13,130 nt of DNA from an archaeon (lineage in GTDB: Archaea; EX4484-52; B79-G9): NCBI GenBank assembly GCA_043813875.1, contig JBDRKP010000062.1:1-13130 (forward strand). The letters are read 5' to 3'. Below, in pieces: positions 1 to 12,987 of this stretch. Made by a program: the position numbers and the translations under genes. How positions within the stretch are numbered: position 1 is the first letter of the stretch; each line of letters opens with the position of its first letter. The notes beneath the pieces are model-generated. The model was given only the letters and a program-made list of their open reading frames with translations, made no database searches and was not told the origin of the DNA.

Positions 1-80
1 AGGCAGAAACACCTTCAGAGGCGTTTATTCGGAAGATGAGGTCTGAAGTGTGGTTTGGCTTCGCTAAAGACTGGTTTTGA
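1..80 (+). CDS. 3' end of an unidentified CDS entering from the left edge (...AETPSEAFIRKMRSEVWFGFAKDWF*)
   Basis: Open frame from position 3 to TGA at 78-80. The stop overlaps a GAGGTGAT RBS preceding an ATG at 90, a typical archaeal operon junction. No family recognised. Confidence 0.4.
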   Translation, partial: AETPSEAFIRKMRSEVWFGFAKDWF

Positions 81-262
81 GGTGATATTATGGCTGTAAA
101 ATATATATCAAAAAAGATGGAAATAATTACGGGATATCACAGCTTCAACTATTGAAAGTAAGATATTTTTCTTGAAGAAAGGCTCTGATTCTTGAGCTCT
201 GGAAGTTTGTTTATCCGGATATGTGCGCCGGTTTTTGTGCTGATGCTGATCATTGTTTAACA

Positions 263-1384
263 TCATTTGTTTTCTTCGATGATCTCTTTGAATGCATTCA
301 CCACGGCCTTTAATTTTTCTTTTGAAATGCCATAGGTGGACAGTTTAAATGACTTTGTATGACCGGGTTTTATGCCTGTGATGCCTCTTTTTTTGAGCTC
401 GTTATAGAGAAAAAAACCTTTCTTTTTGTGCTTTTTTGAGATCTCATATAAGACAGGTGTATTGAAATACATCAGATCGTGCATGTGCGGCCTCTGGCCT
501 ACTAAAACAAAGCCGAGGGTTTCTAGTTCGGATGCAAACCACTGCGCTTTTTTTACTTCTTCGTCCCAGTTTTCTACTCTTTTATGTACTTCGGGAAATG
601 ACGACATCAGTGTTGCGATGGTTGCACCTCTTGATGTGCAACCGAGGCATTCTAGAACCTTGTTCGGGTAGTCTTTTGATATTTTAAGTACAATGTCTGC
701 ATATTTCTTGTTCATGCCGATGAATCCAATGGGTCCTGATGCGCTCATTGATTTGTGGCCGGATGCGACTATGAAGTCAGCTCCCAGCGCGGTCATATCT
801 ATCGGGCGGCGGCCTACGGAATATGCGCAATTCAGCACATAAGGCACGTTGTATTTTTTTGCAATGTCTCCCAGTTTTTTTGCATCTGAAAGATTTCCAT
901 AGTTGCCGTCGGGGTATGTCAAGAGAATCAGTTTTGGCTTGTGTTTTTTTATGAGAGGTTCGTAATTTGCGACATCGATGGAATCAGTGGAATCGTTGTT
1001 GTTTTTTACTTTTATGACGTTGAGATGAGCGCGTTCTATAGCAACAAGGCATGAATAATGGGCGTTTTCGTCGACAAGAACTGTATCGTCTGGTTCTGCG
1101 ATTGAATGCATGATCATAAACATTCCTTCACGCGCGCCGTTTGTTATACGGACGGTGTCGCAACCTACGAATTTTGGAAGGATATCTTTTGTGAATGTCT
1201 TTATCGGCGGTTTTTCGATGTCGTCAAGTGCGCCCTTGCAGAAATCACATACGGAGTAGCCGTCTCCAAATTCTATGAGCGCTTTTTTTGCTGCTTCTGT
1301 CAGTTTTCCGCCTGTCTGGAGCGGGTTGAGGTTAATGAAATCTTTTGTCTCGCGCTTGATATCTGTAAGTTTTGAATAATCCAT
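263..1384 (-). CDS. pscS: O-phospho-L-seryl-tRNA:Cys-tRNA synthase (SepCysS), PLP-dependent
   Basis: Motifs INLNPLQTGGKL, GDGYSVCDFC (CxxC), GAREG, AHYS, PDGNYGN, PLP-lysine motif SGHKS, third conserved Cys in LGCTSRG, C-terminal GIKPG..FKLSTYG. ATG at 1384 preferred over TTG at 1399. Adjacent to sepS and a tRNA-Cys. Confidence 0.96.
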   Translation of the reverse strand: MDYSKLTDIKRETKDFINLNPLQTGGKLTEAAKKALIEFGDGYSVCDFCKGALDDIEKPPIKTFTKDILPKFVGCDTVRITNGAREGMFMIMHSIAEPDDTVLVDENAHYSCLVAIERAHLNVIKVKNNNDSTDSIDVANYEPLIKKHKPKLILLTYPDGNYGNLSDAKKLGDIAKKYNVPYVLNCAYSVGRRPIDMTALGADFIVASGHKSMSASGPIGFIGMNKKYADIVLKISKDYPNKVLECLGCTSRGATIATLMSSFPEVHKRVENWDEEVKKAQWFASELETLGFVLVGQRPHMHDLMYFNTPVLYEISKKHKKKGFFLYNELKKRGITGIKPGHTKSFKLSTYGISKEKLKAVVNAFKEIIEENK

Positions 1385-1405
1385 AGATTTAATATACAAA
1401 TTATA

Positions 1406-1413
1406 TTTATATA
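1406..1413 (-). promoter_or_regulatory. Putative TATA box (TATATAAA) for a leaderless pscS transcript
   Basis: Lies 22-29 nt upstream of the ATG at 1384. The region is very AT-rich, so specificity is limited. Confidence 0.45.
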
Positions 1414-1428
1414 CATATACCTAAATTT

Positions 1429-1440
1429 AAAAAAAAAGAA
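1429..1440 (-). terminator. Oligo-T archaeal-type terminator after tRNA-Cys
   Basis: TTCTTTTTTTTT on the minus strand directly after the tRNA discriminator base. Confidence 0.55.
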
Positions 1441-1511
1441 AGCGAGGAGAGAGAATTGAACTCCCGTGAGTCGCTCTGCAGGCGACCACATGGCCACTAT
1501 GCTATCCTCGC
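1441..1511 (-). tRNA. tRNA-Cys (anticodon GCA), copy 1; intron-less, G37, U73, CCA not encoded
   Basis: Minus strand folds as GCGAGGA TA GCAT AGTGGCC ATGT G GTCGC CTGCAGA GCGAC TCAC GGGAG TTCAATT CTCTC TCCTCGC T. All four stems pair, anticodon at 1479-1477. The first 10 nt overlap the end of sepS. Confidence 0.95.
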
Positions 1512-3034
1512 ACATTAACTTTAATTGTGATGAAAACCGGGCCTTTTATGTCTATTTTCTTGTTCTGTTTCTCCAGCTGCTTTTTTGTTACAGAAGAAAT
1601 CATTAAATTTATATGCCCCAAAGCGCGAACCATTCCCGTGTATATCTCAAAATCAGCTGTTGGTTTGGATTCTATCTCTGCAGCGGCTTTATTTGCGATC
1701 GCCGCAATGAAAGATATATCTGTCCTTTGTCCTGTATTTTCATCCAAACTGTTGATTATATTTCCGTCTTTAACAAAAATCTTATTAAAGCCTGCAGGAC
1801 CGATCAATTTTTTGCCTTCCTCAACTTCGACTATAGATACTACTGTTTTTTTGCTGTCTATCACGCCAACCCACGCCACAACTTCTGCTGGCGCAATGTC
1901 GTTCTTGTGTTCCCGGGCTGTCTTGAGAATGGATTCGGCTATTTCTTTACCCTGTATGGTTTTTGGCTCTTCAATGTATTTTATGTCTTCTGCTATCTGT
2001 TTGTCGTCTAATGTGTCTTCAAGATAAAACTGGGGGAATATCATCTCTCTTATGTCTTTGTGACCGCCCAGCACCATTGCGAGGCGCTCAACACCGAAAC
2101 CAACATTGAATACGGGATACCTGATGTTAAAATTTGCAAGGGATATCGCAGAATACATGCCCATGTCTGCTATTTCCAGCCATTTCCCGTTGTGCATCAC
2201 AAATACTTCGTCTTCCAAGCCGTTCGCATAATATTTTGATGTCGCTTTTTTTGTCTCGAATCTTACTTTTTTGAAGCCTATTTTTTCGAATATTTTCTTT
2301 ACTATCCTCCGGCCGGCAACCACATCGATGTTGGGATCCATCACGACAATTGATGCGCTGTTGTGTACTCTGAGGTGGCCTGCATCCTCTTTTTGCTCGT
2401 TCCTGTAGCGGCGGCCTATTGAAAACAGGGCTACCGGAAAATCGGCTTTGTCCTGCATGGCAGATAGAGTGTGATACCATGTGCCGCTCATGTGGCTTCT
2501 TAAAGTAAGATTGGTCGGTATCGGCTTAAGGTCCTTTAACTGCTCAAAAAGAGATATAATCGCTGTCGCATGTTCTGTCTTGATGCCTAATTTCACGACA
2601 AGCTCCTCTACAAAATCGTCCCCTTCTATGTTTCCTTTTTTGTATTCCCGTAATATGTCTTTTAATAATGTGATATCGATCTTTGCAATCTCTTTAATGC
2701 GGGCAATTAATCTGTCATCAAGCCCAATTTCGGGTCTTGGCAGCTTTGCAATATAGAATGCCCGGTCAAGAATAACAGCAGCTTCCGGGCCATATTCGCG
2801 GTAGACGTCATCATCGGGAATGATGGTGAGGTTTTCGGTCTCATCAAATCCCATTTCGATGAGAAGGGATCTGAGGTGATTTATTGTTTTCCCGAGTATG
2901 TGCTCTTTACCTATCTTTTTTTCAAACATGAATTTTTGGGTGGGTTTTTGCTCAAATAAGGCTGATGTCTCAATCCATGTTTTTTCGAAATCGTTTTTTG
3001 CGTCTTCTCTTGTCTTCTTGATGTTTATCTGCAT
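1502..3034 (-). CDS. sepS: O-phosphoseryl-tRNA(Cys) synthetase (SepRS), divergent type
   Basis: Motifs FEKTW, YGPEAAVILDRAFY..LPRP, TLRSHM, motif 2 region FSIGRRYRNEQKED...NSAS, SKYY, motif 3 PVFNVGFGVERLAM, anticodon-domain EVEE..LIGPA and IDIKGPVF. Neighbours tRNA-Cys and pscS. Confidence 0.95.
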   Translation of the reverse strand: MQINIKKTREDAKNDFEKTWIETSALFEQKPTQKFMFEKKIGKEHILGKTINHLRSLLIEMGFDETENLTIIPDDDVYREYGPEAAVILDRAFYIAKLPRPEIGLDDRLIARIKEIAKIDITLLKDILREYKKGNIEGDDFVEELVVKLGIKTEHATAIISLFEQLKDLKPIPTNLTLRSHMSGTWYHTLSAMQDKADFPVALFSIGRRYRNEQKEDAGHLRVHNSASIVVMDPNIDVVAGRRIVKKIFEKIGFKKVRFETKKATSKYYANGLEDEVFVMHNGKWLEIADMGMYSAISLANFNIRYPVFNVGFGVERLAMVLGGHKDIREMIFPQFYLEDTLDDKQIAEDIKYIEEPKTIQGKEIAESILKTAREHKNDIAPAEVVAWVGVIDSKKTVVSIVEVEEGKKLIGPAGFNKIFVKDGNIINSLDENTGQRTDISFIAAIANKAAAEIESKPTADFEIYTGMVRALGHINLMISSVTKKQLEKQNKKIDIKGPVFITIKVNVRG

Positions 3035-3058
3035 AGGATTTATTTAAGAGGAAATACA

Positions 3059-3066
3059 TTTATAAA
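3059..3066 (-). promoter_or_regulatory. Putative TATA box (TTTATAAA) of sepS, leaderless transcript
   Basis: 25-32 nt upstream of the ATG at 3034, preceded by a purine-rich BRE-like stretch. No RBS before the ATG. Confidence 0.6.
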
Positions 3067-3141
3067 ATATTCTTTTTTGTGTGCCGGGTCTCTGAATTCG
3101 CTAAGGTGGTTGTTTTATTGTCAATCCAGACTTTTCCGGGA

Positions 3142-3606
3142 TTAAGAAATAATCTCTGTCTTTTTTTTGAAGAAGAGCCAGTTCTTTTTTGAGCCTGCGA
3201 AGCGGGTTCTTATGAGGACGTATGGGCCTTTTAGTTTCTGGCCGTTGATGTCGATTATGAGTTTGTCTTCTTCTGATTCTATGGTTTTGAATGTGCCGCG
3301 GTCCCAGATTGTCACTTTGCCTGCGCCGTATTGACCCTGTGGGATGGTTCCCTCGAAGTCGGCGTAGTCTATGGGGTGGTCTTCGGTCTCTACTGCCAAT
3401 CTTCTTGTTTGGGGGTCCGTCGGCGGAACTTTCGGGAGGGCCCAGCTTTTTAAGACGACGCCGATTTCCAAGCGCAGGTCCCAGTGGAGGCGGGATGCGT
3501 CGTGCTGCTGGATCACATAGATGCTTTTTTGTGTTGATTCTTGTTTTCCTTCTGGCTCGGCGGTTGATGTGAAGTTGCGCTTCTTTTTGTATTCTTCGAG
3601 GGACAT
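3142..3606 (-). CDS. Stand-alone DNA 3'-phosphoesterase (LigD N-terminal PE domain)
   Basis: LEEYKKKRNF..T.EP, VIQQHDASRLHWDLRLE, LKSWALPK, RLAVETEDHPIDYADFEGTIP.GQYGAG.V.IWDRG match the LigD phosphoesterase signature. No ligase or polymerase domain is fused. Confidence 0.92.
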   Translation of the reverse strand: MSLEEYKKKRNFTSTAEPEGKQESTQKSIYVIQQHDASRLHWDLRLEIGVVLKSWALPKVPPTDPQTRRLAVETEDHPIDYADFEGTIPQGQYGAGKVTIWDRGTFKTIESEEDKLIIDINGQKLKGPYVLIRTRFAGSKKNWLFFKKKTEIIS

Positions 3607-3721
3607 GGAATATTATTGGTTTTTATTTTTTTAATATCTTCTGCATGTCCCTTTAGAGCGGGCATAAATATTTGTAGTATAAAGGGCCAATATTCCATAG
3701 ACTGTTTGACGTTTGTGGTAT

Positions 3722-5500
3722 ATGATGGATAAGCCAGAGAACGGATATATGCGCGCTGTAGAGGAATATCTTGGCGGCATCGATGAGGTCATAGAGACGC
3801 ATATGTCCCGGGTGTTTCTTGGTGAGGATACTGCGGTCAAGGCATTCAAGGCAATCGATCTTTTTTTTGTGGATATGAGGCCGCTTCTGAAAAGGAAGAT
3901 TTCTGCTATCAAGACTGTGGAGGTCGACAGAGTGTATTCTCCTGATCTTGATACGCGGGTCGCTACGGTTGTCTTGAGTGATGGTTATTATTCTGTTGTT
4001 GACGGTGTGATTCCTGATACCGGACTTAAGGCAGGCGAAGAGATAGTCGATTATGTCATTGTCATGCGGCGCTTCAGGGCTAAGTCGGAACTTGATGAGT
4101 TCTACAGAAACGGAGAGATCACATATGAACATGCAAGGCAGATCGGTGAGCTTCTTGCTTTCGCGCATGAGAAGGCAAAGAGTGATGATGAGATATCTGG
4201 AACCGGTTTTCGCGCCATTTCCGGGAACTACGATGAGGCCTTCCGGATCACGAAGAATTATATCGGCGTCTCTATCAGTAAGAAGGACTATGATACCATA
4301 TATTCTGCTTACATAAAGTTTGTCGAGGAGAACCGCAAATTTCTTGAAAAAAGAAGGGTTGACGGATTCATCAGGCAGTGCCATGGGGATGCGCATTCAG
4401 GAAATATGTTTGTCGAGTCCGGGAAGGTCAAGATTTTTGATCCTATCGGCTTCAAGGATGAGTTCAGCTATATGGATGTTATTTCTGATCTCGCTTTCGC
4501 GTGCATGGATGCTATCTTTTTCGGGCGGGAGGATATCTCTTCTGCAATCAAGGATGCTTATGTGAGGAAGACGAGGGACGACGAAGGTGTCGGGCGCCTG
4601 CTTGATTTCTATATCGCATACCGGGCGTTTGTGAGGGGCGAGGTCAGGACGATGGCTGCGAGCGGATGGAGAAAAAAGGAAAGTGGGAAGGCCATTTCTG
4701 AGGCAAAAAAATATTTCAGGATCGCAAAGAAGTATGCTCTGAAGGCATTAAAAAGCCAGAAACTCTATATCGTATGCGGCTACGTGGCGTCTGGCAAAAC
4801 TACTGTCGCTTCGCTGCTTCGAAGGATTACGGGCGCCAGGGCCATCAGTACGGACGAAATCCGAAAAGAGATGTATCCTCTCGTGTTTAATTACGGGCTT
4901 AAAAAGATAGCTTCGGCTGAGAGAATAAAGGAATGGATCGAGTCTAATGATGCGGATAAGATCAATTTCCAGGAAGTGCTTAATCCGCTGCTTGAATTCA
5001 AGGAGAGGGAGTATAAGAAGATAATATATGAATATAATCATTTCGTGAGGGAGCAGAAGGAGAAAGTATACAGGAGAGCATATTCTTTGCTTGATGAGTA
5101 CCTGTCTTCTGGGGATGATGTCATCTTCGATGCGACGTTTTCCAAGATGGAGATGCGTTATGAGGCGTATGATGTTTCGCTCAGGCACGGAGTGAAAGAT
5201 GTGTATATCTTACAGGTGCTCTGTTCGAGAGATGAGGTGGCTGGGCGGCTTTCTCTCAGAAAAAAAATGGGGCGAAAGAGCGCATCTGAGGCGAAGCAGC
5301 TTGAGATTTATGATCTTGTGAAGATGGAGTTCGATCGCAGCAGGATCGATCTTGATGATCCTACCGGTATCAATCTTCGGCGGATTGTGTATCATACTGA
5401 TACTTATGATGTTGAAGAGTTTGGAGAGAGGGATGATACTGTCGAGATGATTGTCGTTAAGGTGATCGGCGCATTGATAAAAAGGTACAGACGTGAATGA
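3722..5500 (+). CDS. Aminoglycoside-phosphotransferase-like kinase fused to a P-loop (AAA_33-type) nucleotide-kinase domain
   Basis: N-terminal IETHMSRVFL..AVK, catalytic loop CHGDAHSGN, FDPIGF..MDVISDLAF..MD, FYIAYRAFVRG. C-terminal Walker A GYVASGKTT, STDEIRK and VIFDATF. Start placed at ATG 3722 (3725 possible). Confidence 0.85.
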   Translation: MMDKPENGYMRAVEEYLGGIDEVIETHMSRVFLGEDTAVKAFKAIDLFFVDMRPLLKRKISAIKTVEVDRVYSPDLDTRVATVVLSDGYYSVVDGVIPDTGLKAGEEIVDYVIVMRRFRAKSELDEFYRNGEITYEHARQIGELLAFAHEKAKSDDEISGTGFRAISGNYDEAFRITKNYIGVSISKKDYDTIYSAYIKFVEENRKFLEKRRVDGFIRQCHGDAHSGNMFVESGKVKIFDPIGFKDEFSYMDVISDLAFACMDAIFFGREDISSAIKDAYVRKTRDDEGVGRLLDFYIAYRAFVRGEVRTMAASGWRKKESGKAISEAKKYFRIAKKYALKALKSQKLYIVCGYVASGKTTVASLLRRITGARAISTDEIRKEMYPLVFNYGLKKIASAERIKEWIESNDADKINFQEVLNPLLEFKEREYKKIIYEYNHFVREQKEKVYRRAYSLLDEYLSSGDDVIFDATFSKMEMRYEAYDVSLRHGVKDVYILQVLCSRDEVAGRLSLRKKMGRKSASEAKQLEIYDLVKMEFDRSRIDLDDPTGINLRRIVYHTDTYDVEEFGERDDTVEMIVVKVIGALIKRYRRE

Positions 5501-5503
5501 CAA

Positions 5504-5917
5504 TCAATCCCATGATGATGATTGCTCTTCCAGAAGCTTGAGCGCCTTGTCTTTCTTTTCGTACGGCACGAAGAGGTGGTCGTGATGATAGGCGGATACT
5601 GGATTGACGCTGATCCCGGATTTTGCGAGTCTCGCGGTTATTGCGGCCAGGAAGCCGACTGCTTCAAGGTCTGAATGGACGGTCAATGTTATTTGCGCCC
5701 ATGTCATTGAATATGGAAGTGAGTTGGCATCTGCTGATTCTTTTTCTATGATGATGGTTGCGCCTTCCTGTTCCCTGAATATCAGTAAAGGGTCTATCTT
5801 CAGTTCAGGAAGGGATTCGTATGGCAGAGTGCAAAAAACAAATTCGTGGTCTATCAATTTCGGTTTCATCGACTTCAGCAATGTTTTCAGATCAGTTATG
5901 GATGGCAGATAAATCAC
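5504..5917 (-). CDS. ACT-domain-containing protein (DUF2241/ACT_7 type)
   Basis: ITDLKTLLKSMKPKL...FVFCT, FREQEGATII, ITLTVHSDLEAVGFLAAITARLA..GISVNPVSAYHHDHLFVP. Start uncertain (GTG 5917 or CTG 5908). Confidence 0.88.
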   Translation of the reverse strand: MIYLPSITDLKTLLKSMKPKLIDHEFVFCTLPYESLPELKIDPLLIFREQEGATIIIEKESADANSLPYSMTWAQITLTVHSDLEAVGFLAAITARLAKSGISVNPVSAYHHDHLFVPYEKKDKALKLLEEQSSSWD

Positions 5918-6021
5918 TTCCTTTAGTAGTTATTTTATCAGGCGGCTTATTTGTCTGAATTCGGTTTTTTCGGGGTTTATTGCGCCGATAGAACTCATAT
6001 GAAGACCAATATAGATAATAT

Positions 6022-6048
6022 TGGAGCAGGGGATTAATCCGAAGAACC
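6022..6048 (-). repeat. Degenerate direct repeat of the 3' end of tRNA-Cys copy 2 (att-like scar)
   Basis: TGGAGCAGGGG at 6022-6032 is identical to 6111-6121. Similarity continues (attaatccgaagaacc vs gagtgattcgaacaccc). Confidence 0.65.
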
Positions 6049-6110
6049 TTCTGAAAGGTTCATCATCACAGCGACCATAAAGCTTCGCTTTAGGTCACTT
6101 ATGGATATTT

Positions 6111-6212
6111 TGGAGCAGGGGGAGTGATTCGAACACCCGTTAATGAGCTTGCTGCTTTGAGCGATCTTTTGCTCTTTTGCAGGCTCACGCCAAGCCGCTA
6201 GGCGACCCCTGC
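6111..6212 (-). tRNA. tRNA-Cys (anticodon GCA), copy 2; 27-nt intron at 37/38, A37, U73, CCA encoded
   Basis: Minus strand: GCAGGGG TC GCCTAGCGGCTTGGC G TGAGC CTGCAA [AAGAGCAAAAGATCGCTCAAAGCAGCA] A GCTCA TTAAC GGGTG TTCGAAT CACTC CCCCTGC T CCA. Anticodon at 6180-6178, mature length 75 nt. Confidence 0.93.
6150..6176 (-). other. Archaeal tRNA intron at the canonical 37/38 position, relaxed bulge-helix-loop motif
   Basis: CUGC (32-35) pairs with intron GCAG. The 3' site is a 3-nt bulge CA/A. The 5' site lies in a 4x3 all-A internal loop closed by GAGC/GCUC. Confidence 0.85.
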
Positions 6213-6236
6213 GCGTCTGTTTGAATTGCGGGACAA

Positions 6237-6244
6237 TATTTAAA
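6237..6244 (-). promoter_or_regulatory. TATA box (TTTAAATA) of tRNA-Cys copy 2
   Basis: 25-32 nt upstream of the mature tRNA 5' end, within the 41-bp cysS-tRNA spacer. Confidence 0.65.
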
Positions 6245-6253
6245 TAGGTTTTG

Positions 6254-7666
6254 TCATGATCTCTTTATCTTAGGACCGGCATCTGAGTCTTCTATTATGT
6301 AGCCGAGTTCCTGGATTTTTGATCTCAGTTCGTCTGACTTCTGCCAGTTCTTTTCTTTTCTTGCTTTTTCGCGCTCTTGTGAGAGCAATTTTACCACTTC
6401 AGGGATTTTCTCTTCTTTTATTTTCGAGAAAAGGCCGAGGACGCCTGAAAATTCTTCGTATAATGCAAGTGTTTTTTTGAGGACGTCTTTATTTTTGCCG
6501 GATTCCATGTATCTGTTTGCAAGACGGGCCAGTTCATGGAATGATTTTATTGCTTCGGGATTGTCAAGATCATCGGATAAGGCATCCTTGAACCGTGTTT
6601 GAAGCAGGGGGAGTGACTTCAACATCTCTTTGTCTATAGGGTATGTTTTTGCATCTCTGCCTTTCAGGGCAAAGCGTAGGTTTGTGAGGGTTTCTTTTAG
6701 TTTGTTGTAGTTATTTTTCGCGTTCTCTGCGAAGTCGTCTGTGTAGTCCAGCTTTTTGCGATAGTGCGTTGAGATGAACATGTATCGGACTATGTCGCCG
6801 CCGTATTTTTCTATTATGTCGGGAAGGGTGAAGAAGTTGCCTTTGGATTTGCTCATCTTTTCGCCGCCGACTATGAGGTGCTCGCCGTGGACCCAGTAGT
6901 GGACGAACGGCTTTCCTGTCGCGCCTTCTGATTGCGCTATCTCGTTCTCGTGGTGGGGGAATATGAGGTCTACGCCGCCTGTGTGGATGTCAAGCGTGGG
7001 GCCGAATGCGCTCATCGCCATGACGGAGCATTCGATGTGCCAGCCGGGGCGTACTTTTCCCCACGGGCTGTCGTAGCAGATGCCGCGCTTTATCTCGTCA
7101 ACTGTGGATGCTTTCAATAGGGCGAAGTCCTGGGGGTTGTCTTTTTCGTATTCGTCGACGTCGACTGAGGCGCCTATCTTTATGTTGTCGAGGTCTATTT
7201 TTGAGAGCTTGCCGTAGTCCTTGAATGATGAGATTTTAAAATATACTGATCCGCCTTTTTCGTATGCCATGCCTTTTTCTACAAGTTTCTTTGTGAGATC
7301 AATCATGCCTGCTACGTTTTCTGTCGCTTTGGGGTAGCTTGATGCGCGCTTGATGTTGAGCATGTCTAGGCCGCGGAAGAATTCATGAGTGTATTTTTCT
7401 GTGAAGTCTTTCAATGTCATTCCTGCAATCTCAGAGTCCCTTATGGTCTTGTCGTCTATGTCTGTGAGGTTCATGACGAGTTTCACTTTGTAGCCTAGGT
7501 ATTCGAGGACTCGCCTCAGGTTGTCGGTCATCAAGAATGAGCGGTAGTTTCCGATGTGGGGCATGTTGTAGACTGTCGGGCCGCATGCGTAGATTGTGAC
7601 TGCGCCTTCTTTTATTGTCCTGAAAGTGTCTTTTTTTCTTGTGAGGGTGTTGTAGAGTTTCAGCAT
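6254..7666 (-). CDS. cysS: Cysteine--tRNA ligase (class I CysRS)
   Basis: [22 protein letters not shown] (HIGH motif plus Zn Cys), [44 protein letters not shown]-terminal [18 protein letters not shown] 7666 (GTG 7675 possible). Confidence 0.98.
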
Positions 7667-7734
7667 TTTTGTCACGGATTGGTTTTGTTGGGTTGCGCTA
7701 TTTGTTTTTGTGTTTTATCAATACTTCGGGAAGA

Positions 7735-7742
7735 TATTTAAA
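7735..7742 (-). promoter_or_regulatory. Putative TATA box (TTTAAATA) upstream of cysS
   Basis: Same octamer as before tRNA copy 2, in the intergenic gap about 60-70 nt upstream of the cysS start. Confidence 0.45.
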
Positions 7743-7782
7743 TATATGGATTGCAGCTGGCAGTCAAAAACAAAGATAGGGG

Positions 7783-8499
7783 TTATTGTTTCATGTTTTT
7801 TGTGATTAGTTCTGATAGCTCGAGAATCTCTATTTTTGCATATTTGCCTTCTGTGTTCTCTTTTAAGTGCGCGTAGCATAACGGGCAGGTTGTTACCAGG
7901 CGCTTTGTTTTCGTTACTTTCAGGATGTTTTCTGCTACCTTGTCTGAGATGTCTTTGTAGTTCGATCTCACACCTCCGCCGCCGCCACAGCACAGGCTTT
8001 GCTCCCTGTTTCTTGGGAGCTCGCGGATCGTGTAGCCCATGTGTCTTATTATGTCTCTTGGCTCGTCAAAGATGCCTGAGTGGCGCCCCAGATGGCATGG
8101 GTCGTGATATGTTATTGTTTCGGTGTTGTCTTTCTTTAGGTGCAGTTTTTTTATGTCGGGCGCTATCACCTGTGTCATGTGGAGGACTTCCAGGTTGTAT
8201 CTGTTTTTGAGAATATGATAGCATGCGGGGCAGTTGGTGATTATCTTCCCTATGCTGTACTGCTTGAGGATATTGATGTTCTTTTCTTTGAGGTCTTCAA
8301 AGTCTTTTGTGTAGCCGGCGTTCAGGGCCGGGCTGCCGCAGCAGTTTATGTCTGTTTTCAGCATGATGAAGTCTATGCCAAGCCTGTTTAAGATTGTCTC
8401 GTAATTCTTCTGGATTTCGGGCAGCACTGTCTGTGTGAGGCAGCCGGGGTAGTAGAGGGTGTTTGTCGACGAGAAGAGGTCTTTTAGTCTTTTGAACAT
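7783..8499 (-). CDS. CCG-domain Fe-S protein (C-terminal half of GlcF/HdrD-like oxidoreductase)
   Basis: Two CCG domains: YYPGC..NCCG..TNCPAC and TYHDPCHLGR..LCCGGGGG..TTCPLC. ATG 8499 follows the RBS-like GAAGTGA and avoids overlap with the upstream gene. Confidence 0.9.
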   Translation of the reverse strand: MFKRLKDLFSSTNTLYYPGCLTQTVLPEIQKNYETILNRLGIDFIMLKTDINCCGSPALNAGYTKDFEDLKEKNINILKQYSIGKIITNCPACYHILKNRYNLEVLHMTQVIAPDIKKLHLKKDNTETITYHDPCHLGRHSGIFDEPRDIIRHMGYTIRELPRNREQSLCCGGGGGVRSNYKDISDKVAENILKVTKTKRLVTTCPLCYAHLKENTEGKYAKIEILELSELITKNMKQ

Positions 8500-8509
8500 G
8501 GAAGTCACT

Positions 8510-9745
8510 TCAGATGTAGCCGAACAGCATGGCAAGGGCAAGCAGTATGAGGATCGCTCCAAGCATTAGCTTCATTGTGCGCTTGTGGCTGTCGCGCCAC
8601 TTTTCGAGGGCTTTCGCTTCGCCGCCGTAGTATATAATCCCTGCAAGCAATACGAGTGGGAGTATGAACATCAGGTTATATGTGAAGATGTAGGGCATTA
8701 TCTGCAGGAGGTTCTGGCCGTGGCCTTTGAGGACTTCGACGACTGTGAGGTATATAGGGATGCTGCACGGGGCTTCCAGAAGGGCGACGAGGGATCCCAA
8801 GAATACTGCTGCCGGAACTGTTGCTTTTTTTGTGAGCGCCTGGATGTGCTTTTTTGATGATTCGGGTATCTTCAATGTGATGCCTTTGCCGTACCAGAAG
8901 TAGTCTTTTATGTTTATTGCGCCTGCTATCAGGGCTAATGTTATCGCGATGTTGCGGATTATTGCCGGCTGATGAAGCTGCATGGAGGTGTAGTAGTAGA
9001 GGATGCCAAGGAGGATGTTTACTGAAAGGAGGGCTGTTATATATGCTGTCGTTATTTTTATGAGGCGCTTTCTTGAGTTTGAAATCTCCAAAAGGAATGC
9101 CATGATGAATAACAGGACGGCGAATGCGCAGGGATTTATGCCGTCTGCCAGGCCGGTGAATAATATGAGTGGGAGTATTGCCTGCCATTCGAGCTTTTCG
9201 CCGAGCTGGGGTATCAGGGGGTCGCGATCGCCTTGTGTCTGGTTTGTGGTGCATTGCATGCCTTCAAGAGGACATATCTTTTCTTCCATCGATATGCCGC
9301 GCTGTATCTCGGCATCGAGGTTGTCTTTTATTTCTGGTTCGCCTACCAGGATCCTGTCGTTTATGGCAAGAAGGGGTATTTTTTTTTCTTCGTAGTTCTT
9401 TGACTGGCATAGCTTGTTGTAGAGGGCGACGTTTTGCGGTTCGGTCACATCGTAACGGGTGAGTATGATGTCGTTTGAATATGCCTGTTCTATGCTGTCT
9501 ATGAACGGCTTCAGGTTCTCGCAGTGCGAGCAGAGCGGGCTGTAGAAGTATGCTATGCATACTTTTGTGGGGTCTGTGTGGTGGGTGAAGCCTTCCTCTA
9601 CTTCATGTGCATCACTGATTGTCTCTATGTCTGGGACCGCACAGCTGCCTGAATCCTGTGAGCATGTGTCTGTTTGGGCGAATGAGGGCACTGCCATCAG
9701 GAGTGTGAAGAATATTAAAGCGATGATGAGTATTTTTTTTGACAT
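8510..9745 (-). CDS. Signal peptide + thioredoxin-like domain + CcdA/DsbD-type transmembrane domain protein
   Basis: N-terminal signal peptide (..VPSFA-Q), FYSPLCSHC (CxxC), then about 6 hydrophobic helices with the two CcdA redox motifs DGINPCAF and LEAPCS. ATG 9745 or 9751. Confidence 0.87.
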   Translation of the reverse strand: MSKKILIIALIFFTLLMAVPSFAQTDTCSQDSGSCAVPDIETISDAHEVEEGFTHHTDPTKVCIAYFYSPLCSHCENLKPFIDSIEQAYSNDIILTRYDVTEPQNVALYNKLCQSKNYEEKKIPLLAINDRILVGEPEIKDNLDAEIQRGISMEEKICPLEGMQCTTNQTQGDRDPLIPQLGEKLEWQAILPLILFTGLADGINPCAFAVLLFIMAFLLEISNSRKRLIKITTAYITALLSVNILLGILYYYTSMQLHQPAIIRNIAITLALIAGAINIKDYFWYGKGITLKIPESSKKHIQALTKKATVPAAVFLGSLVALLEAPCSIPIYLTVVEVLKGHGQNLLQIMPYIFTYNLMFILPLVLLAGIIYYGGEAKALEKWRDSHKRTMKLMLGAILILLALAMLFGYI

Positions 9746-9793
9746 ATACATTACCTTTGAATCTATAATGCCGTTGTCTTTATGTGTTTTTGC

Positions 9794-10153
9794 CTAGCAG
9801 CAGTAGAGGTCTTTTGGTATCTTTCCTTTTTCCTGCCTGCCGAACGGGTTGCCGTGTTTTCTTATGTTCTCTATCATTTTTTTGTTCGCTTGTGTCTCTT
9901 TTCCTTTCTTTATTGATTCTTCTCTTGCTTTTCTTATCTCGCCGGGGAGGTCTATCTCTTCAGGGCATTCTATTTTGCATGAGTTGCAGAGGGTGCACTG
10001 GTGGATTATGTCGTCGAGCTTCTTGTTTTTTAATAGGATTGCGCGACCGCGTGCGCTTTTGGTCTCGAGCTTTGTCGCCTTGAATATGGGGCAGTTTGTC
10101 TTGCAGAGCCCGCATAATGTGCAGTCGTCCAAGGTCTTGTTTAATTTTTTCAT
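9794..10153 (-). CDS. 2x[4Fe-4S] dicluster protein (N-terminal half of GlcF/HdrD-like oxidoreductase)
   Basis: CTLCGLCKTNCP and CTLCNSCKIECP motifs, SARGR, GNPFG. ATGA overlap with the upstream gene. Ends in YCC. Confidence 0.9.
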   Translation of the reverse strand: MKKLNKTLDDCTLCGLCKTNCPIFKATKLETKSARGRAILLKNKKLDDIIHQCTLCNSCKIECPEEIDLPGEIRKAREESIKKGKETQANKKMIENIRKHGNPFGRQEKGKIPKDLYCC

Positions 10154-11319
10154 ATCACTTTTCCCCTGTTCATGATGTTGTTCGGGTCGTATTTCTGTTT
10201 CTTTTTTTGGAGGCTCTTTTTTAGTGTTTCATCGATGTATTGTCTTTTTGTGATGCCTATGCCGTGCTCGCCGGATACGATGCCGTTGTTGTTTTTTACT
10301 TCGGTGTAGAATCTTTTCAGGTCAAAGTCTTTTTTTAAGCGGCAGTGGATTATGCCGTAGCCGATGTGGCCGAAGTTCGGGATGCCTTCAATTCTCAGCC
10401 AGTTGAGGAAGAGAGGGATGTTTATTGTTGGTATCTTCGGGTCTTCTATCAATGGGTAGCCGGCCGCTGATAATACTGTTGCCAGACCCTTTCTTAGTTT
10501 CCATGCGCCTTCTATTTCTTTTTCTGTTTTGTATGTGCCGCCTGCGTTTTCGTATTCTATGAAGAGATGGTATTTTTCGCTGCCGCCCTCAAGAGTCGAT
10601 GTCAGGGGGTCTATGTATTCGATCGCGATTATGTCGGTTCTTTTCAGGTGGTCTTTTACTATTTGTATCATTTCTTCTGGTGTGTCGAATTCGTATGTTG
10701 AGATTGATGTCTGTTTTGGTGGGTGTGTGAGTTTTAAGGTGGCTTTTGTTATTATGCCAAGAAGACCTTCTGTGCCGGCGAATTCGTGTATGTCTTTTGT
10801 CTTTATTGTGTCTCCTTTTCCTGTTACGAGTTCGATTTCTTCTGTCCATGCGGAGGTTTTGCCGTATCTTATTGCGCGGTTGCCTGCGGCGTCTGTCGAT
10901 ATCATGCCGCCGATGGTGGCCACACCGTCGCTTGAGGGGATGACGGGAAAGTAGAGATTTTTACTTTTGAGGTATGTGTTGAGGTCGCCTACTATCATTC
11001 CTGATTCTACTGTTATTGTGTTTTTGGTTTCTTCGATTATCTTGTCCATCTTTGATGTGTCGATGATGAGCGAGCTGGCGGGGACTGCGCCGCCGACCAG
11101 GCTTGTTCCGCCGCCTCTCGGGGTTAGGGGGATGTTGTTTTTGTTCGCGTATCTTATGATTTTCTGTACATGTTCTGATGTTGTCGGCCAGATGACTGCG
11201 GTTGCTGTTCCTTTCAGCTGGGAGGAGTCGTATGAGTAGATGAGGAGGTCTGTCGGCTGTTCTGAGATGTTTTCTTTGCCTACGATTTTTTCGAGTTCTT
11301 TCAGATGGGATGGGTCCAT
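10150..11319 (-). CDS. FAD-binding oxidoreductase, GlcD/D-lactate dehydrogenase family
   Basis: PRGGGTSLVGG, ATIGGMIS.DAAG..AIRYG, GTEGLLGIITKATLKL, FGHIGYGIIH, SGEHGIG, DPNNIMNRGKV. Confidence 0.9.
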   Translation of the reverse strand: MDPSHLKELEKIVGKENISEQPTDLLIYSYDSSQLKGTATAVIWPTTSEHVQKIIRYANKNNIPLTPRGGGTSLVGGAVPASSLIIDTSKMDKIIEETKNTITVESGMIVGDLNTYLKSKNLYFPVIPSSDGVATIGGMISTDAAGNRAIRYGKTSAWTEEIELVTGKGDTIKTKDIHEFAGTEGLLGIITKATLKLTHPPKQTSISTYEFDTPEEMIQIVKDHLKRTDIIAIEYIDPLTSTLEGGSEKYHLFIEYENAGGTYKTEKEIEGAWKLRKGLATVLSAAGYPLIEDPKIPTINIPLFLNWLRIEGIPNFGHIGYGIIHCRLKKDFDLKRFYTEVKNNNGIVSGEHGIGITKRQYIDETLKKSLQKKKQKYDPNNIMNRGKVI

Positions 11320-11872: not shown

Positions 11873-12328
11873 ATGAAAAGTGTAGATATTCATCTAAAGG
11901 ATGATGAAATTGATTTTTTAAAGAATTTTGTAAAAAAAGGAAAGCATAGAGCAAGAGAGATCGCAAGGGCAAACATATTGTTGCTGTCTAATGATGGTAG
12001 GGATGTCGCAACAATTACAAAAACTCTATCTGTCCATAGGCAAACGATATGGGAGGTCAAGAGAAGATACTTGGATGAGGGATTAAGGTTTGCGTTAAAT
12101 GATAAACCGAGACCAGGACAACCTAAAAGATATAATGATAAGCATGAAGCAGAAATAATTGCTACAGCATGTACCTCTCCGCCAAAAGGAAGCAAAAAGT
12201 GGACTCTCGTATTGTTGGTAGAAGAACTAAAGAAAAAGGATGATTTTGAAACAATTAGCCGTGAAACAATTCGTCTTGTTTTAAAAAAAGCAAAACAAAA
12301 CCATGGCAGAAAAAAATGTGGTGTATAG
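11873..12328 (+). CDS. IS630 transposase, N-terminal HTH part (orfA)
   Basis: RANILLL, HTH region, LNDKPRPGQP, ACTSPPKG..KWTL..L, ISRETIRLVLKK. RBS GGAGGT upstream. Confidence 0.92.
   Translation: MKSVDIHLKDDEIDFLKNFVKKGKHRAREIARANILLLSNDGRDVATITKTLSVHRQTIWEVKRRYLDEGLRFALNDKPRPGQPKRYNDKHEAEIIATACTSPPKGSKKWTLVLLVEELKKKDDFETISRETIRLVLKKAKQNHGRKKCGV
12283..12289 (+). promoter_or_regulatory. A7 slippery site for -1 frameshift joining orfA and orfB
   Basis: TTA AAA AAA G in the orfA frame. A -1 shift gives RLVLKK-SKTKPWQKKMWCI, the usual IS630 junction. Confidence 0.8.
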
Positions 12329-12987
12329 GAAAGATTACACCGGAATATAGGGAAAGGATGTACGATTTAACGGATTTGTACAATGAACCATATGACCCAG
12401 AAAGACCAAAAATAGGAATAGATGAAAAATCGAAACAGTTGCTTGAGAACATAAAAATTCCAATCCCAATGAAAAAAGGGAGTCCTGAAAAATACGATTA
12501 TGAATACAAACGAAAGGGCACTGCTAACATATTTGTAGCTGTTGATCCGCAAGTAGGGAAACGAGTTACAATGGTAACTAATCAAAGAACAAAAAAGGAT
12601 TTTGCGTACTTCATGAAACATTTGGTTGACGAGGTCTTTCGTGATGCGAAACAGCTAAGAGTAATTGTAGATAACCTCAACACACACTTTAAGAGTTCTT
12701 TCGACGAAACATTCGATGAGGAAGAAGCGAACAGAATCTTAAGCAAAATTGAATTTCACTACACCCCGAAACATGCAAGTTGGCTCAATGTAGCAGAGAT
12801 AGAGATTAATGCGATGGATACACAATGTACTGGCAGAAGAATGAAAAATAAAGACTTTTTGATTGAAGAGGTAGAAGCATGGACTAATAAGAGAAACGAA
12901 CAAAAAAAGAAAATCGACTGGAGATTCACCAGAAAAGACGCAGATAGAAAGTTATCTAAACATTATGTAAGTCAATTAAACTGCTGA
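12316..12987 (+). CDS. IS630 transposase, C-terminal DDE catalytic part (orfB, probably reached by frameshift)
   Basis: DDE triad contexts IGIDEK, VIVDNLNTH, YTPKHASWLNVAEIE, plus DYEYKRKGT and IDWRFT. Confidence 0.93.
   Translation: MWCIGKITPEYRERMYDLTDLYNEPYDPERPKIGIDEKSKQLLENIKIPIPMKKGSPEKYDYEYKRKGTANIFVAVDPQVGKRVTMVTNQRTKKDFAYFMKHLVDEVFRDAKQLRVIVDNLNTHFKSSFDETFDEEEANRILSKIEFHYTPKHASWLNVAEIEINAMDTQCTGRRMKNKDFLIEEVEAWTNKRNEQKKKIDWRFTRKDADRKLSKHYVSQLNC

Follow-up and report, generated by a model that had tools for sequence, protein, structure and literature searches.

A native CysRS module and a probably acquired SepRS cassette with its own tRNA on one contig of a small-genome DPANN archaeon

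The coexistence of SepRS and CysRS in methanogens has long been known. A SepRS-SepCysS(-tRNA-Cys) operon in DPANN archaea is described in section 3.1.2 of Mukai 2022 (PMC8762117), and the main text of Mukai 2017 (PMC5424206) reports a relaxed tRNA specificity of SepRS, with A37 and G37 forms of tRNA-Cys both charged in vitro, as well as a Parcubacteria bin that holds one A37 and one G37 tRNA-Cys. The same text asks whether SepRS is so sparse in Archaea because CysRS gradually took its place or because SepRS spread by horizontal transfer. Here we describe a stretch of 13,130 nucleotides (nt), hereafter the window, which is the entire contig C62 (JBDRKP010000062.1) of a metagenome bin, G000, and which carries both a sepS-tRNA-pscS cassette and a cysS-tRNA module. 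We conclude that this small-genome groundwater DPANN archaeon probably has two independent routes to Cys-tRNA(Cys), a native module and an acquired cassette, in a redundant and transitional state.

Operons of this type have been published before from DPANN archaea, and their components are ordinary and known. Judged by the main text of the two Mukai papers, the cassette agrees with the DPANN/bacterial SepRS-(tRNA-Cys)-SepCysS operon in gene order, in the compact placement of the same three parts on one strand, in a SepRS that belongs to the clade of DPANN, Candidate Phyla Radiation (CPR) and Chloroflexi sequences and lacks the m1G37 segment as the bacterial enzymes do, and in a patchy distribution for which horizontal transfer is suspected. 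It differs in that G000 also keeps CysRS, a native tRNA-Cys and CysK-like genes, and in that sister genomes show stages of loss. What may go beyond the main text of PMC5424206 and PMC8762117 is a cassette that came in from outside with the direct route lost, the replacement of the tRNA gene, and a conserved overlap between the sepS stop codon and the tRNA. Neither paper speaks of the 10-nt overlap in its main text, and their figures or supplements may show some of these points; the text supplement of PMC8762117 does not mention Aenigmatarchaeota or Nanohaloarchaeota.

Three further systems invite comparison, again as far as the text of these papers goes. The Parcubacteria bin (PMC5424206) likewise combines a host-type and a cassette-type tRNA-Cys that differ at base 37 with a SepRS of the same clade in a small genome; it is a bacterium whose SepRS charged both tRNAs in tests, whereas the present system is archaeal and known from sequence alone, and its A37 tRNA is CysRS-linked and intron-bearing. 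Methanosarcina (Hauenstein and Perona 2008, as cited in PMC8762117) also has SepRS/SepCysS together with CysRS, and several tRNA-Cys isoacceptors with reported preferences. Its SepRS, in contrast, is of the methanogen type that uses m1G37, there is no sepS-tRNA-pscS cassette arrangement, and CysRS is thought to be the later arrival there, whereas here the arrival is the SepRS cassette. The dual routes to Asn-tRNA and Gln-tRNA (PMC8762117) resemble this case in pairing a direct synthetase with tRNA-dependent synthesis, one or both of which a lineage may keep, but they involve other enzymes and amino acids and a single tRNA, with no dedicated second tRNA gene.

The G000 bin comprises 1.64 Mb in 90 contigs and is 91.5% complete, with a stated contamination of 0.55%. 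We analysed it within a phylum sample of 42 genomes from a single order (8 families, 13 genera), in which the window's own genus is g1 (8 genomes) and g8 is a genus of another family (4 genomes); the relatives are metagenome bins, all of them incomplete (57-96% complete). A wider sample of the SepRS clade comprises 80 loci besides the window, with flanks of up to 8 kb. The parts of the two modules are as follows.

263-1399, minus strand: pscS, encoding SepCysS (TIGR02539, 536 bits, cut-off 365.25; PF05889); likely start at the ATG at 1384
1429-1440, minus strand: TTCT9 run directly 3' of tRNA copy 1, read from the sequence as a putative archaeal oligo-T terminator of the sepS-tRNA transcript
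1441-1511, minus strand: tRNA-Cys(GCA) copy 1, cassette type, 71 nt (ARAGORN; Rfam RF00005, 54.6 bits)
1502-3034, minus strand: sepS, encoding SepRS (O-phosphoserine-tRNA ligase), 510 aa (TIGR00470, 439 bits, cut-off 380.65)
6019-6045, minus strand: incomplete repeat of the 3' half of tRNA copy 2, from the T-loop to the CCA, lying about 65 nt beyond the 3' end of that gene
6111-6212, minus strand: tRNA-Cys(GCA) copy 2, native type (ARAGORN with introns allowed; orthologue alignment; fold)
6150-6176, minus strand: 27-nt intron of tRNA copy 2 at the canonical position 37/38 (gap against intron-less orthologues; fold)
6237-6244, minus strand: TTTAAATA box, putative archaeal promoter of tRNA copy 2, 25-32 nt upstream of it
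6254-7675, minus strand: cysS, encoding CysRS (cysteine-tRNA ligase), 473 aa (TIGR00435, 479.2 bits, cut-off 340)
7735-7742, minus strand: TTTAAATA box, putative promoter of cysS, about 60 nt upstream of its start

A first-pass annotation of this DNA had placed sepS-tRNA-pscS and cysS-tRNA on one strand, and all five parts were recovered on the minus strand. It had also put the two modules side by side, which does not hold strictly, since three unrelated genes, one of them on the opposite strand, occupy the 3.1 kb between them. In the native direct route, CysRS would load free cysteine, probably made by two CysK/CysM-like enzymes; in the cassette route, SepRS would load O-phosphoserine on tRNA-Cys, and the pyridoxal phosphate (PLP) enzyme SepCysS would convert the phosphoserine to cysteine on the tRNA.

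The full-length TIGR00470 match of SepRS spans residues 4-509 and lies above the curated equivalog cut-off; its class II catalytic core matches PF01409 (E 1.5e-40), residues 1-508 match the structures 2odr, 2du7, 5x6c and 2du3 (E 4e-101 to 3.5e-98), and from family membership the enzyme is predicted to charge tRNA-Cys with O-phosphoserine. SepCysS matches the A. fulgidus SepCysS structure 2e7i (E 3e-139) and conserves the cysteines of the CDFC motif, the lysine of GHKSM (PLP) and the cysteine of LGCT, which we take to be Cys39, Cys42, Lys209 and Cys247. CysRS matches PF01406, DALR_2 and CysS_C besides TIGR00435, and its full-length open frame contains the class I motifs HIGN and KMSKS. Compared with the enzymes of M. 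maripaludis and M. jannaschii (2odr and 2du7), the window's SepRS has a deletion of 13-16 residues in the anticodon-binding domain, after ...GNIINSLD. According to the main text of PMC5424206, m1G37 is read by Ile444 and the helix that follows it, and these are absent from bacterial SepRS; by residue numbering, the deletion falls at this m1G37-reading segment (Ile444 of A. fulgidus). Because the segment is missing, we regard the window's SepRS as belonging to the bacterial/DPANN type and not to the methanogen/Archaeoglobus type.

The two tRNA genes are both tRNA-Cys and are clearly distinct, with 46 of 69 aligned positions identical. Copy 1 has no intron, an anticodon loop CUGCAGA (G37), U73 and no encoded CCA, and is followed by the TTCT9 run; its identity is 99% in G004, G006 and G007 and 90-94% in G020, G026 and G031. 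Copy 2 has a GCA anticodon, A37, U73, an encoded CCA and a 27-nt intron at 37/38. The GCA anticodon, U73 and cloverleaf of a tRNA-Cys are thus present in copy 1, and in copy 2 with the intron placed at 37/38. The first-pass description of two different tRNA-Cys genes, each within a complete route, and of their contrast in intron, CCA and base 37, was borne out by orthologues and by the fold. Encoded CCA is no marker of origin, because 8 of the 27 predicted tRNAs in the genome end in CCA.

Copy 2 was missed by ARAGORN with default settings and by Rfam, whether at the gathering score or, on 5800-7900, with the limit relaxed to E<=10, where four weak Rfam matches (E 1.7-3.4) were set aside as chance. 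With introns allowed, ARAGORN printed copy 2 as tRNA-Gly(GCC) with a 27-nt intron at 34/35, and on that reading the contig would hold one tRNA-Cys only. We give this practically no credence. In G005 and G001, of the same genus, an intron-less 74-nt tRNA-Cys(GCA) lies 48-250 nt downstream of cysS, has the loop CUGCAAA, ends in U73-CCA, and aligns with copy 2 on either side of a 28-column gap, its differences in the anticodon stem being compensatory. The genome has a tRNA-Gly(GCC) elsewhere, an intron-less gene on contig C42. These orthologues, U73, the fold geometry (cuts placed by bulge and helix give CUGCAAA) and the tRNA-Gly(GCC) on C42 rule the Gly label out, and it is an artefact of the intron placement.

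The minimum-free-energy fold of copy 2 is a cloverleaf (-39.8 kcal/mol, z -2.9) in which the anticodon stem is followed by a 3-nt bulge CAA, a 4-bp CUGC/GCAG helix, a 4x3 internal loop and a GAGC/GCUC hairpin. The 3' splice site lies in the 3-nt bulge, between CA and A, with the exact cut ambiguous within the A run, and the 5' site lies in the 4x3 loop, so that the strict bulge-helix-bulge of two 3-nt bulges and a 4-bp helix is not present. In this modeled fold the intron is a relaxed bulge-helix-bulge, with cuts that would leave CUGCAA joined to A. The genome encodes a splicing endonuclease (EndA), and the ARAGORN calls for its 27 predicted tRNA genes include 12 with an intron.

The repeat at 6019-6045 has a 12-nt core, CCCCTGCTCCAA, identical to tRNA copy 2. 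A second near-copy of the 3' half of copy 2 lies within the cysS coding region (6598-6624, minus strand, 23/27 match) and is absent from the cysS genes of G001 and G005. The two near-copies may be integration scars. We considered an element reaching from copy 2 to the cassette, and found no tRNA-end repeats beyond the cassette, where the contig ends 262 nt past pscS.

The promoter-like sequences differ between the modules. An 18-mer on the minus strand, TATTTAAATAT..TCCCG (repeat D20), occurs before copy 2 (6229-6246) and before cysS (7727-7744) with 16 of 18 positions identical, and these sites, which include the TTTAAATA boxes, are likely twin archaeal promoters, judging from the sequence. 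AT-rich TATA-like stretches precede sepS and pscS, the latter after the TTCT9 run, and no TATA-like box was found before tRNA copy 1. A scan for sigma-70 promoters and intrinsic terminators gave no enrichment over shuffled sequences, and this consensus is not relevant to archaea.

The sepS frame runs into tRNA copy 1 and covers its first 10 nt (1502-1511). The last two sense codons and the TAG stop of sepS are nt 2-10 of the tRNA, the first tRNA nucleotide ends the preceding codon, and the stop itself corresponds to tRNA positions U8-A9-G10. Since there is no TATA-like box before the tRNA, the stop lies inside it and an oligo-T run follows it, sepS and copy 1 probably form one transcript. RNase P, whose RNA gene is present in the genome (153 bits), would free the tRNA from this co-transcript, and its cut would remove the sepS stop codon. 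Seven loci of relatives cover the 3' end of sepS, and in five of them (G004, G007, G006, G020 and G026) a tRNA-Cys overlaps this end or comes directly after it. The overlap is also kept at L081 (4244-4253), L082 (9515-9524) and L083 (1847-1856), Aenigmatarchaeota- and Woesearchaeota-labelled loci in which SepRS is only 55-58% identical and the acceptor stem is also the same. In the wider clade sample, a tRNA-Cys lies within 160 nt of sepS at 9 of 80 loci, Aenigmatarchaeota- and Woesearchaeota-labelled ones among them, and SepCysS accompanies SepRS at 69 of 80.

Two variations on this arrangement were seen. A second sepS variant, at L072 (G005:C14) and L077, ends in ...AKACD before its stop codon with no tRNA after it, and the G005 copy shares only 56% identity with the SepRS of the window when the C-terminal 157-159 residues are compared. 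In G031 (g8), a cassette-type tRNA-Cys stands alone beside argS (L187, G031:C33, 1501-1571, minus strand) and pscS lies between a TudS-related gene and gltX (L073, G031:C11); SepRS was not found in this bin, which is 71% complete, and the cassette appears dispersed there.

To assess the origin of each module, we compared their distributions and identities across the order. CysRS was found in 30 of the 41 genomes searched, including 27 of the 29 that belong to genera without SepRS. Its identity to the G000 enzyme is 80% within the genus, 62-80% within the family and 37-62% in other families, and a tRNA-Cys of the copy 2 type occurs throughout the order with the same gradient (96-100% down to 79%). 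Because identity drops with taxonomic distance, we regard the CysRS module as native, and these sequence comparisons indicate vertical inheritance of both cysS and copy 2 throughout this DPANN phylum.

The cassette shows a different pattern. SepRS was detected in 9 of the 42 genomes, which belong to only 2 of the 13 genera: 7 of 8 genomes of g1 and 2 of 4 of g8 have it, and it was not found in the other 11 genera of the sample. SepCysS was recovered from 7 of 41 genomes, all of them members of g1 or g8. The window's SepRS is 74-75% identical to that of g8, a value similar to the 72-77% within its own genus. For PheRS-alpha, the nearest SepRS paralogue, identity is 70-71% within g1 and 32-36% to g8, and for MetRS it is 73-77% and 36-38%. 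A SepRS identity of 74-75% between g1 and g8, where the other two synthetases show 32-38%, argues that the cassette moved laterally. The first-pass proposal that at least one module was acquired as a cassette is upheld by this contrast and by the restriction to two genera.

A tree of SepRS was built on 27 rows, taken from the window, from a single g8 locus and from 25 of the 80 wider-clade loci (nearly all of the 55 omitted are near-duplicate Chloroflexi). In it, five close named records join the window and the g8 row in one 100/100 clade with no split resolved inside. Its sister is a Woesearchaeota-labelled pair, and all lie within a group of Aenigmatarchaeota, CPR and Chloroflexi. The nearest named SepRS records (72-76%) are titled Candidatus Nanohalarchaeota, Candidatus Aenigmatarchaeota, 'Methanosarcinales' and 'uncultured archaeon'. 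The simplest reading of these sequence relationships is a lateral exchange between g1 and g8, in either direction, or a common donor; the cassette would have come into the g1 ancestor and been exchanged with a distant family of the same order. GC content is even across positions 1-11000 (41-48%), with no compositional anomaly at the cassette. As the GC of the cassette (41-43%) is close to the genome mean of 43.8%, the transfer was not recent.

As G000 is a bin of 90 contigs from metagenome data, a chimera that joins modules of two organisms through an assembly or binning error would also put them together. Four groundwater DNA runs gave pieces of about 88-430 nt on the stretch, none of which bridges the modules. 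Such an artefact is nevertheless extremely unlikely. The closest relatives of both modules are in the same genus (SepRS 72-77%, SepCysS 75-79%, CysRS 80%), G001 and G005 carry both systems too, and the evenness of GC and the low stated contamination speak for a single source.

The clustering of the modules had been presented as a paired island that relatives might share, and the synteny survey does not bear this out. The window's 12 proteins were compared by tblastn with the relatives' sepS and cysS contigs, and the modules are not adjacent there. The regions upstream of sepS in G001 (3.2 kb) and G005 (4.3 kb) contain neither cysS nor any spacer gene of the window, nor do the shorter upstream flanks in G004 and G007, and in G005 the ACT gene is not downstream of cysS-tRNA. 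CysRS lies near SepRS at 2 of the 80 wider-clade loci (L111 and L144), roughly what chance would give for +/-8 kb in genomes of about 1 Mb. We infer that the 3-kb proximity of the modules is incidental.

The first-pass annotation further assigned one module to de novo synthesis and the other to salvage of free cysteine. This split is not supported for G000, which has two CysK/CysM-like genes (323 and 279 bits), so that CysRS need not rely on imported cysteine. CysK-like genes were found in 20 of 41 genomes overall, in 4 of 4 genomes of g2 and 3 of 4 of g3, and were not found in the 7 other g1 genomes nor in the 4 g8 genomes. In three relatives without SepRS (G013:C30, G011:C205 and G019:C79) a CysK-like gene adjoins cysS, and the native direct route thus tends to cluster too.

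Of the 12 genomes that make up g1 and g8, three (G000, G001 and G005) have both CysRS and the native tRNA, and neither was found in the other nine. These patterns can be arranged as a series of four stages. An ancestor would have had cysK, cysS and the native tRNA; the cassette would then have been added, which is where G000 stands; cysK would have gone next, as in G001 and G005; and finally cysS and its tRNA would have been lost, as in G002, G004, G006, G007 and g8. G000 looks like a replacement intermediate because it has kept everything: the cassette, CysRS, the native tRNA and the CysK-like genes.

Several observations weigh against this series and against the reading of the locus that it supports. 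Any gene not found in the relatives may reflect an assembly gap, given the completeness of their bins; those behind the absences of cysK, cysS and the native tRNA are 57-89% complete, and in g1, where cysS and its tRNA are adjacent, one missing contig would drop both. Assembly gaps are an unlikely explanation for seven independent misses of cysK in one genus. The genera g1 and g8 amount to two evolutionary samples only, as kin are not independent, and G005 is a mixed bin with 8% contamination, three native-type tRNA-Cys genes (one A37, two G37) and two SepRS types. The sepS genes of G002 and of a second G005 contig have no tRNA after them, and no tRNA-Cys of either type was found in G002. The CysK-like scores of G000 fall below the family cut-off of 344. 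The supporting genes of G000 include SerA (603 bits) and a Trm5-family gene, and a search with TIGR01364, the sole model tried, gave no match for phosphoserine aminotransferase in the genome, so that the source of phosphoserine is half shown. The data fit a transfer from g1 to g8 as well as one from g8 to g1.

The loss of the native module elsewhere also raises the question of whether it is decaying in G000 as well, with decoding resting on the cassette and with the intron and the repeat scar as signs of relaxed selection. The intron is missing from the G001 and G005 orthologues, its 5' splice site lies in a 4x3 internal loop instead of a strict 3-nt bulge, a partial duplicate of the tRNA 3' half lies just downstream, and most members of g1 are without the module. 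We consider decay very unlikely, for cysS is full length with both class I motifs and scores well over the family cut-off, mature copy 2 forms a cloverleaf with compensatory anticodon-stem changes relative to its orthologues, tRNA introns are common in this genome and EndA is present, and cysS and copy 2 have both kept TATA-like boxes. The reading we prefer is the one given at the outset, that of a native module still in place beside an acquired cassette.

A further question is whether the two synthetase/tRNA pairs are semi-orthogonal, with SepRS mainly charging copy 1 and CysRS mainly copy 2, which would give the cell two insulated and separately regulable channels for cysteine. The cassette carries its own tRNA, which is 90-99% conserved across g1 and g8 and has the same acceptor stem and overlap in distant loci; the two tRNAs of G000 differ at a third of their aligned positions; and the text of PMC8762117 raises a possible orthogonality of both systems in some methanogens. 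Among the 12 genomes of the two genera, none was found to have just one of CysRS and the native tRNA, and a cysS-linked tRNA with A37 occurs only in g1 (of 18 native-type genes in relatives, 2 have A37 and 16 have G37). The hints from co-loss and from A37 are weak, because the genes are adjacent, the bins are incomplete and the A37 change is a single event. On the other side, both tRNAs share the major identity elements, GCA anticodon and U73, and for this reason we infer that cross-charging is likelier than its absence. The bacterial-type and M. maripaludis SepRS enzymes charge A37, G37, 'bacterial' and 'archaeal' tRNA-Cys alike in vitro, according to the main text of PMC5424206. Base 37, one of several contrasts named in the first-pass annotation, does not work as a discriminator: cassette tRNAs carry G37 in g1 and in G031 but A37 in G026 and at the Woesearchaeota-labelled loci, and SepRS lacks the helix that would read m1G37. 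On balance we think semi-orthogonal pairing unlikely.

A more elaborate version seems to us distinctly unlikely. It would have the cassette replace the whole native cysteine channel (cysK, cysS and tRNA-Cys) as the pairs became partly insulated, with the genus-specific change of the native tRNA from G37 to A37 as part of that insulation and the stop codon within the tRNA tying SepRS output to tRNA maturation. If true, it would make the cassette a natural, compact and transferable orthogonal pair.

The contig carries further genes. Those between the modules, all identified by domain matches, are listed here.

3142-3606, minus strand: LigD-type 3'-phosphoesterase
3713-5500, plus strand: 595-aa protein with APH-like and AAA_33 kinase domains
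5504-5917, minus strand: small ACT-domain protein

The LigD-type 3'-phosphoesterase stands alone and forms a divergent pair with the APH-like/AAA_33 P-loop kinase protein. The two may constitute a nucleic-acid end-healing pair, and neither was found adjoining sepS or cysS in relatives. Beyond cysS, a four-gene cluster on the minus strand (7783-11319) encodes an HdrB-like CCG protein, a thioredoxin-domain membrane protein, an HdrC-like ferredoxin and a GlcD-like FAD oxidase, and may represent a lactate- or glycolate-type dehydrogenase with a thiol/disulfide module. An IS630-family transposase follows on the plus strand (11873-12987) in two overlapping frames (151 and 223 aa) with a GC of 35-38%, and is either a frameshifted or a broken copy.

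With respect to the choice between gradual replacement by CysRS and horizontal transfer, this order would provide a concrete case of the reverse: a lineage with CysRS gains a mobile SepRS cassette that brings its tRNA along, and then loses the direct route step by step. G000 would represent the stage at which everything is still present, which makes it handy for asking whether the two systems share their tRNAs, why a symbiont with a reduced genome would favour tRNA-bound synthesis of cysteine, and whether the overlap of sepS with its tRNA has a part in regulation.

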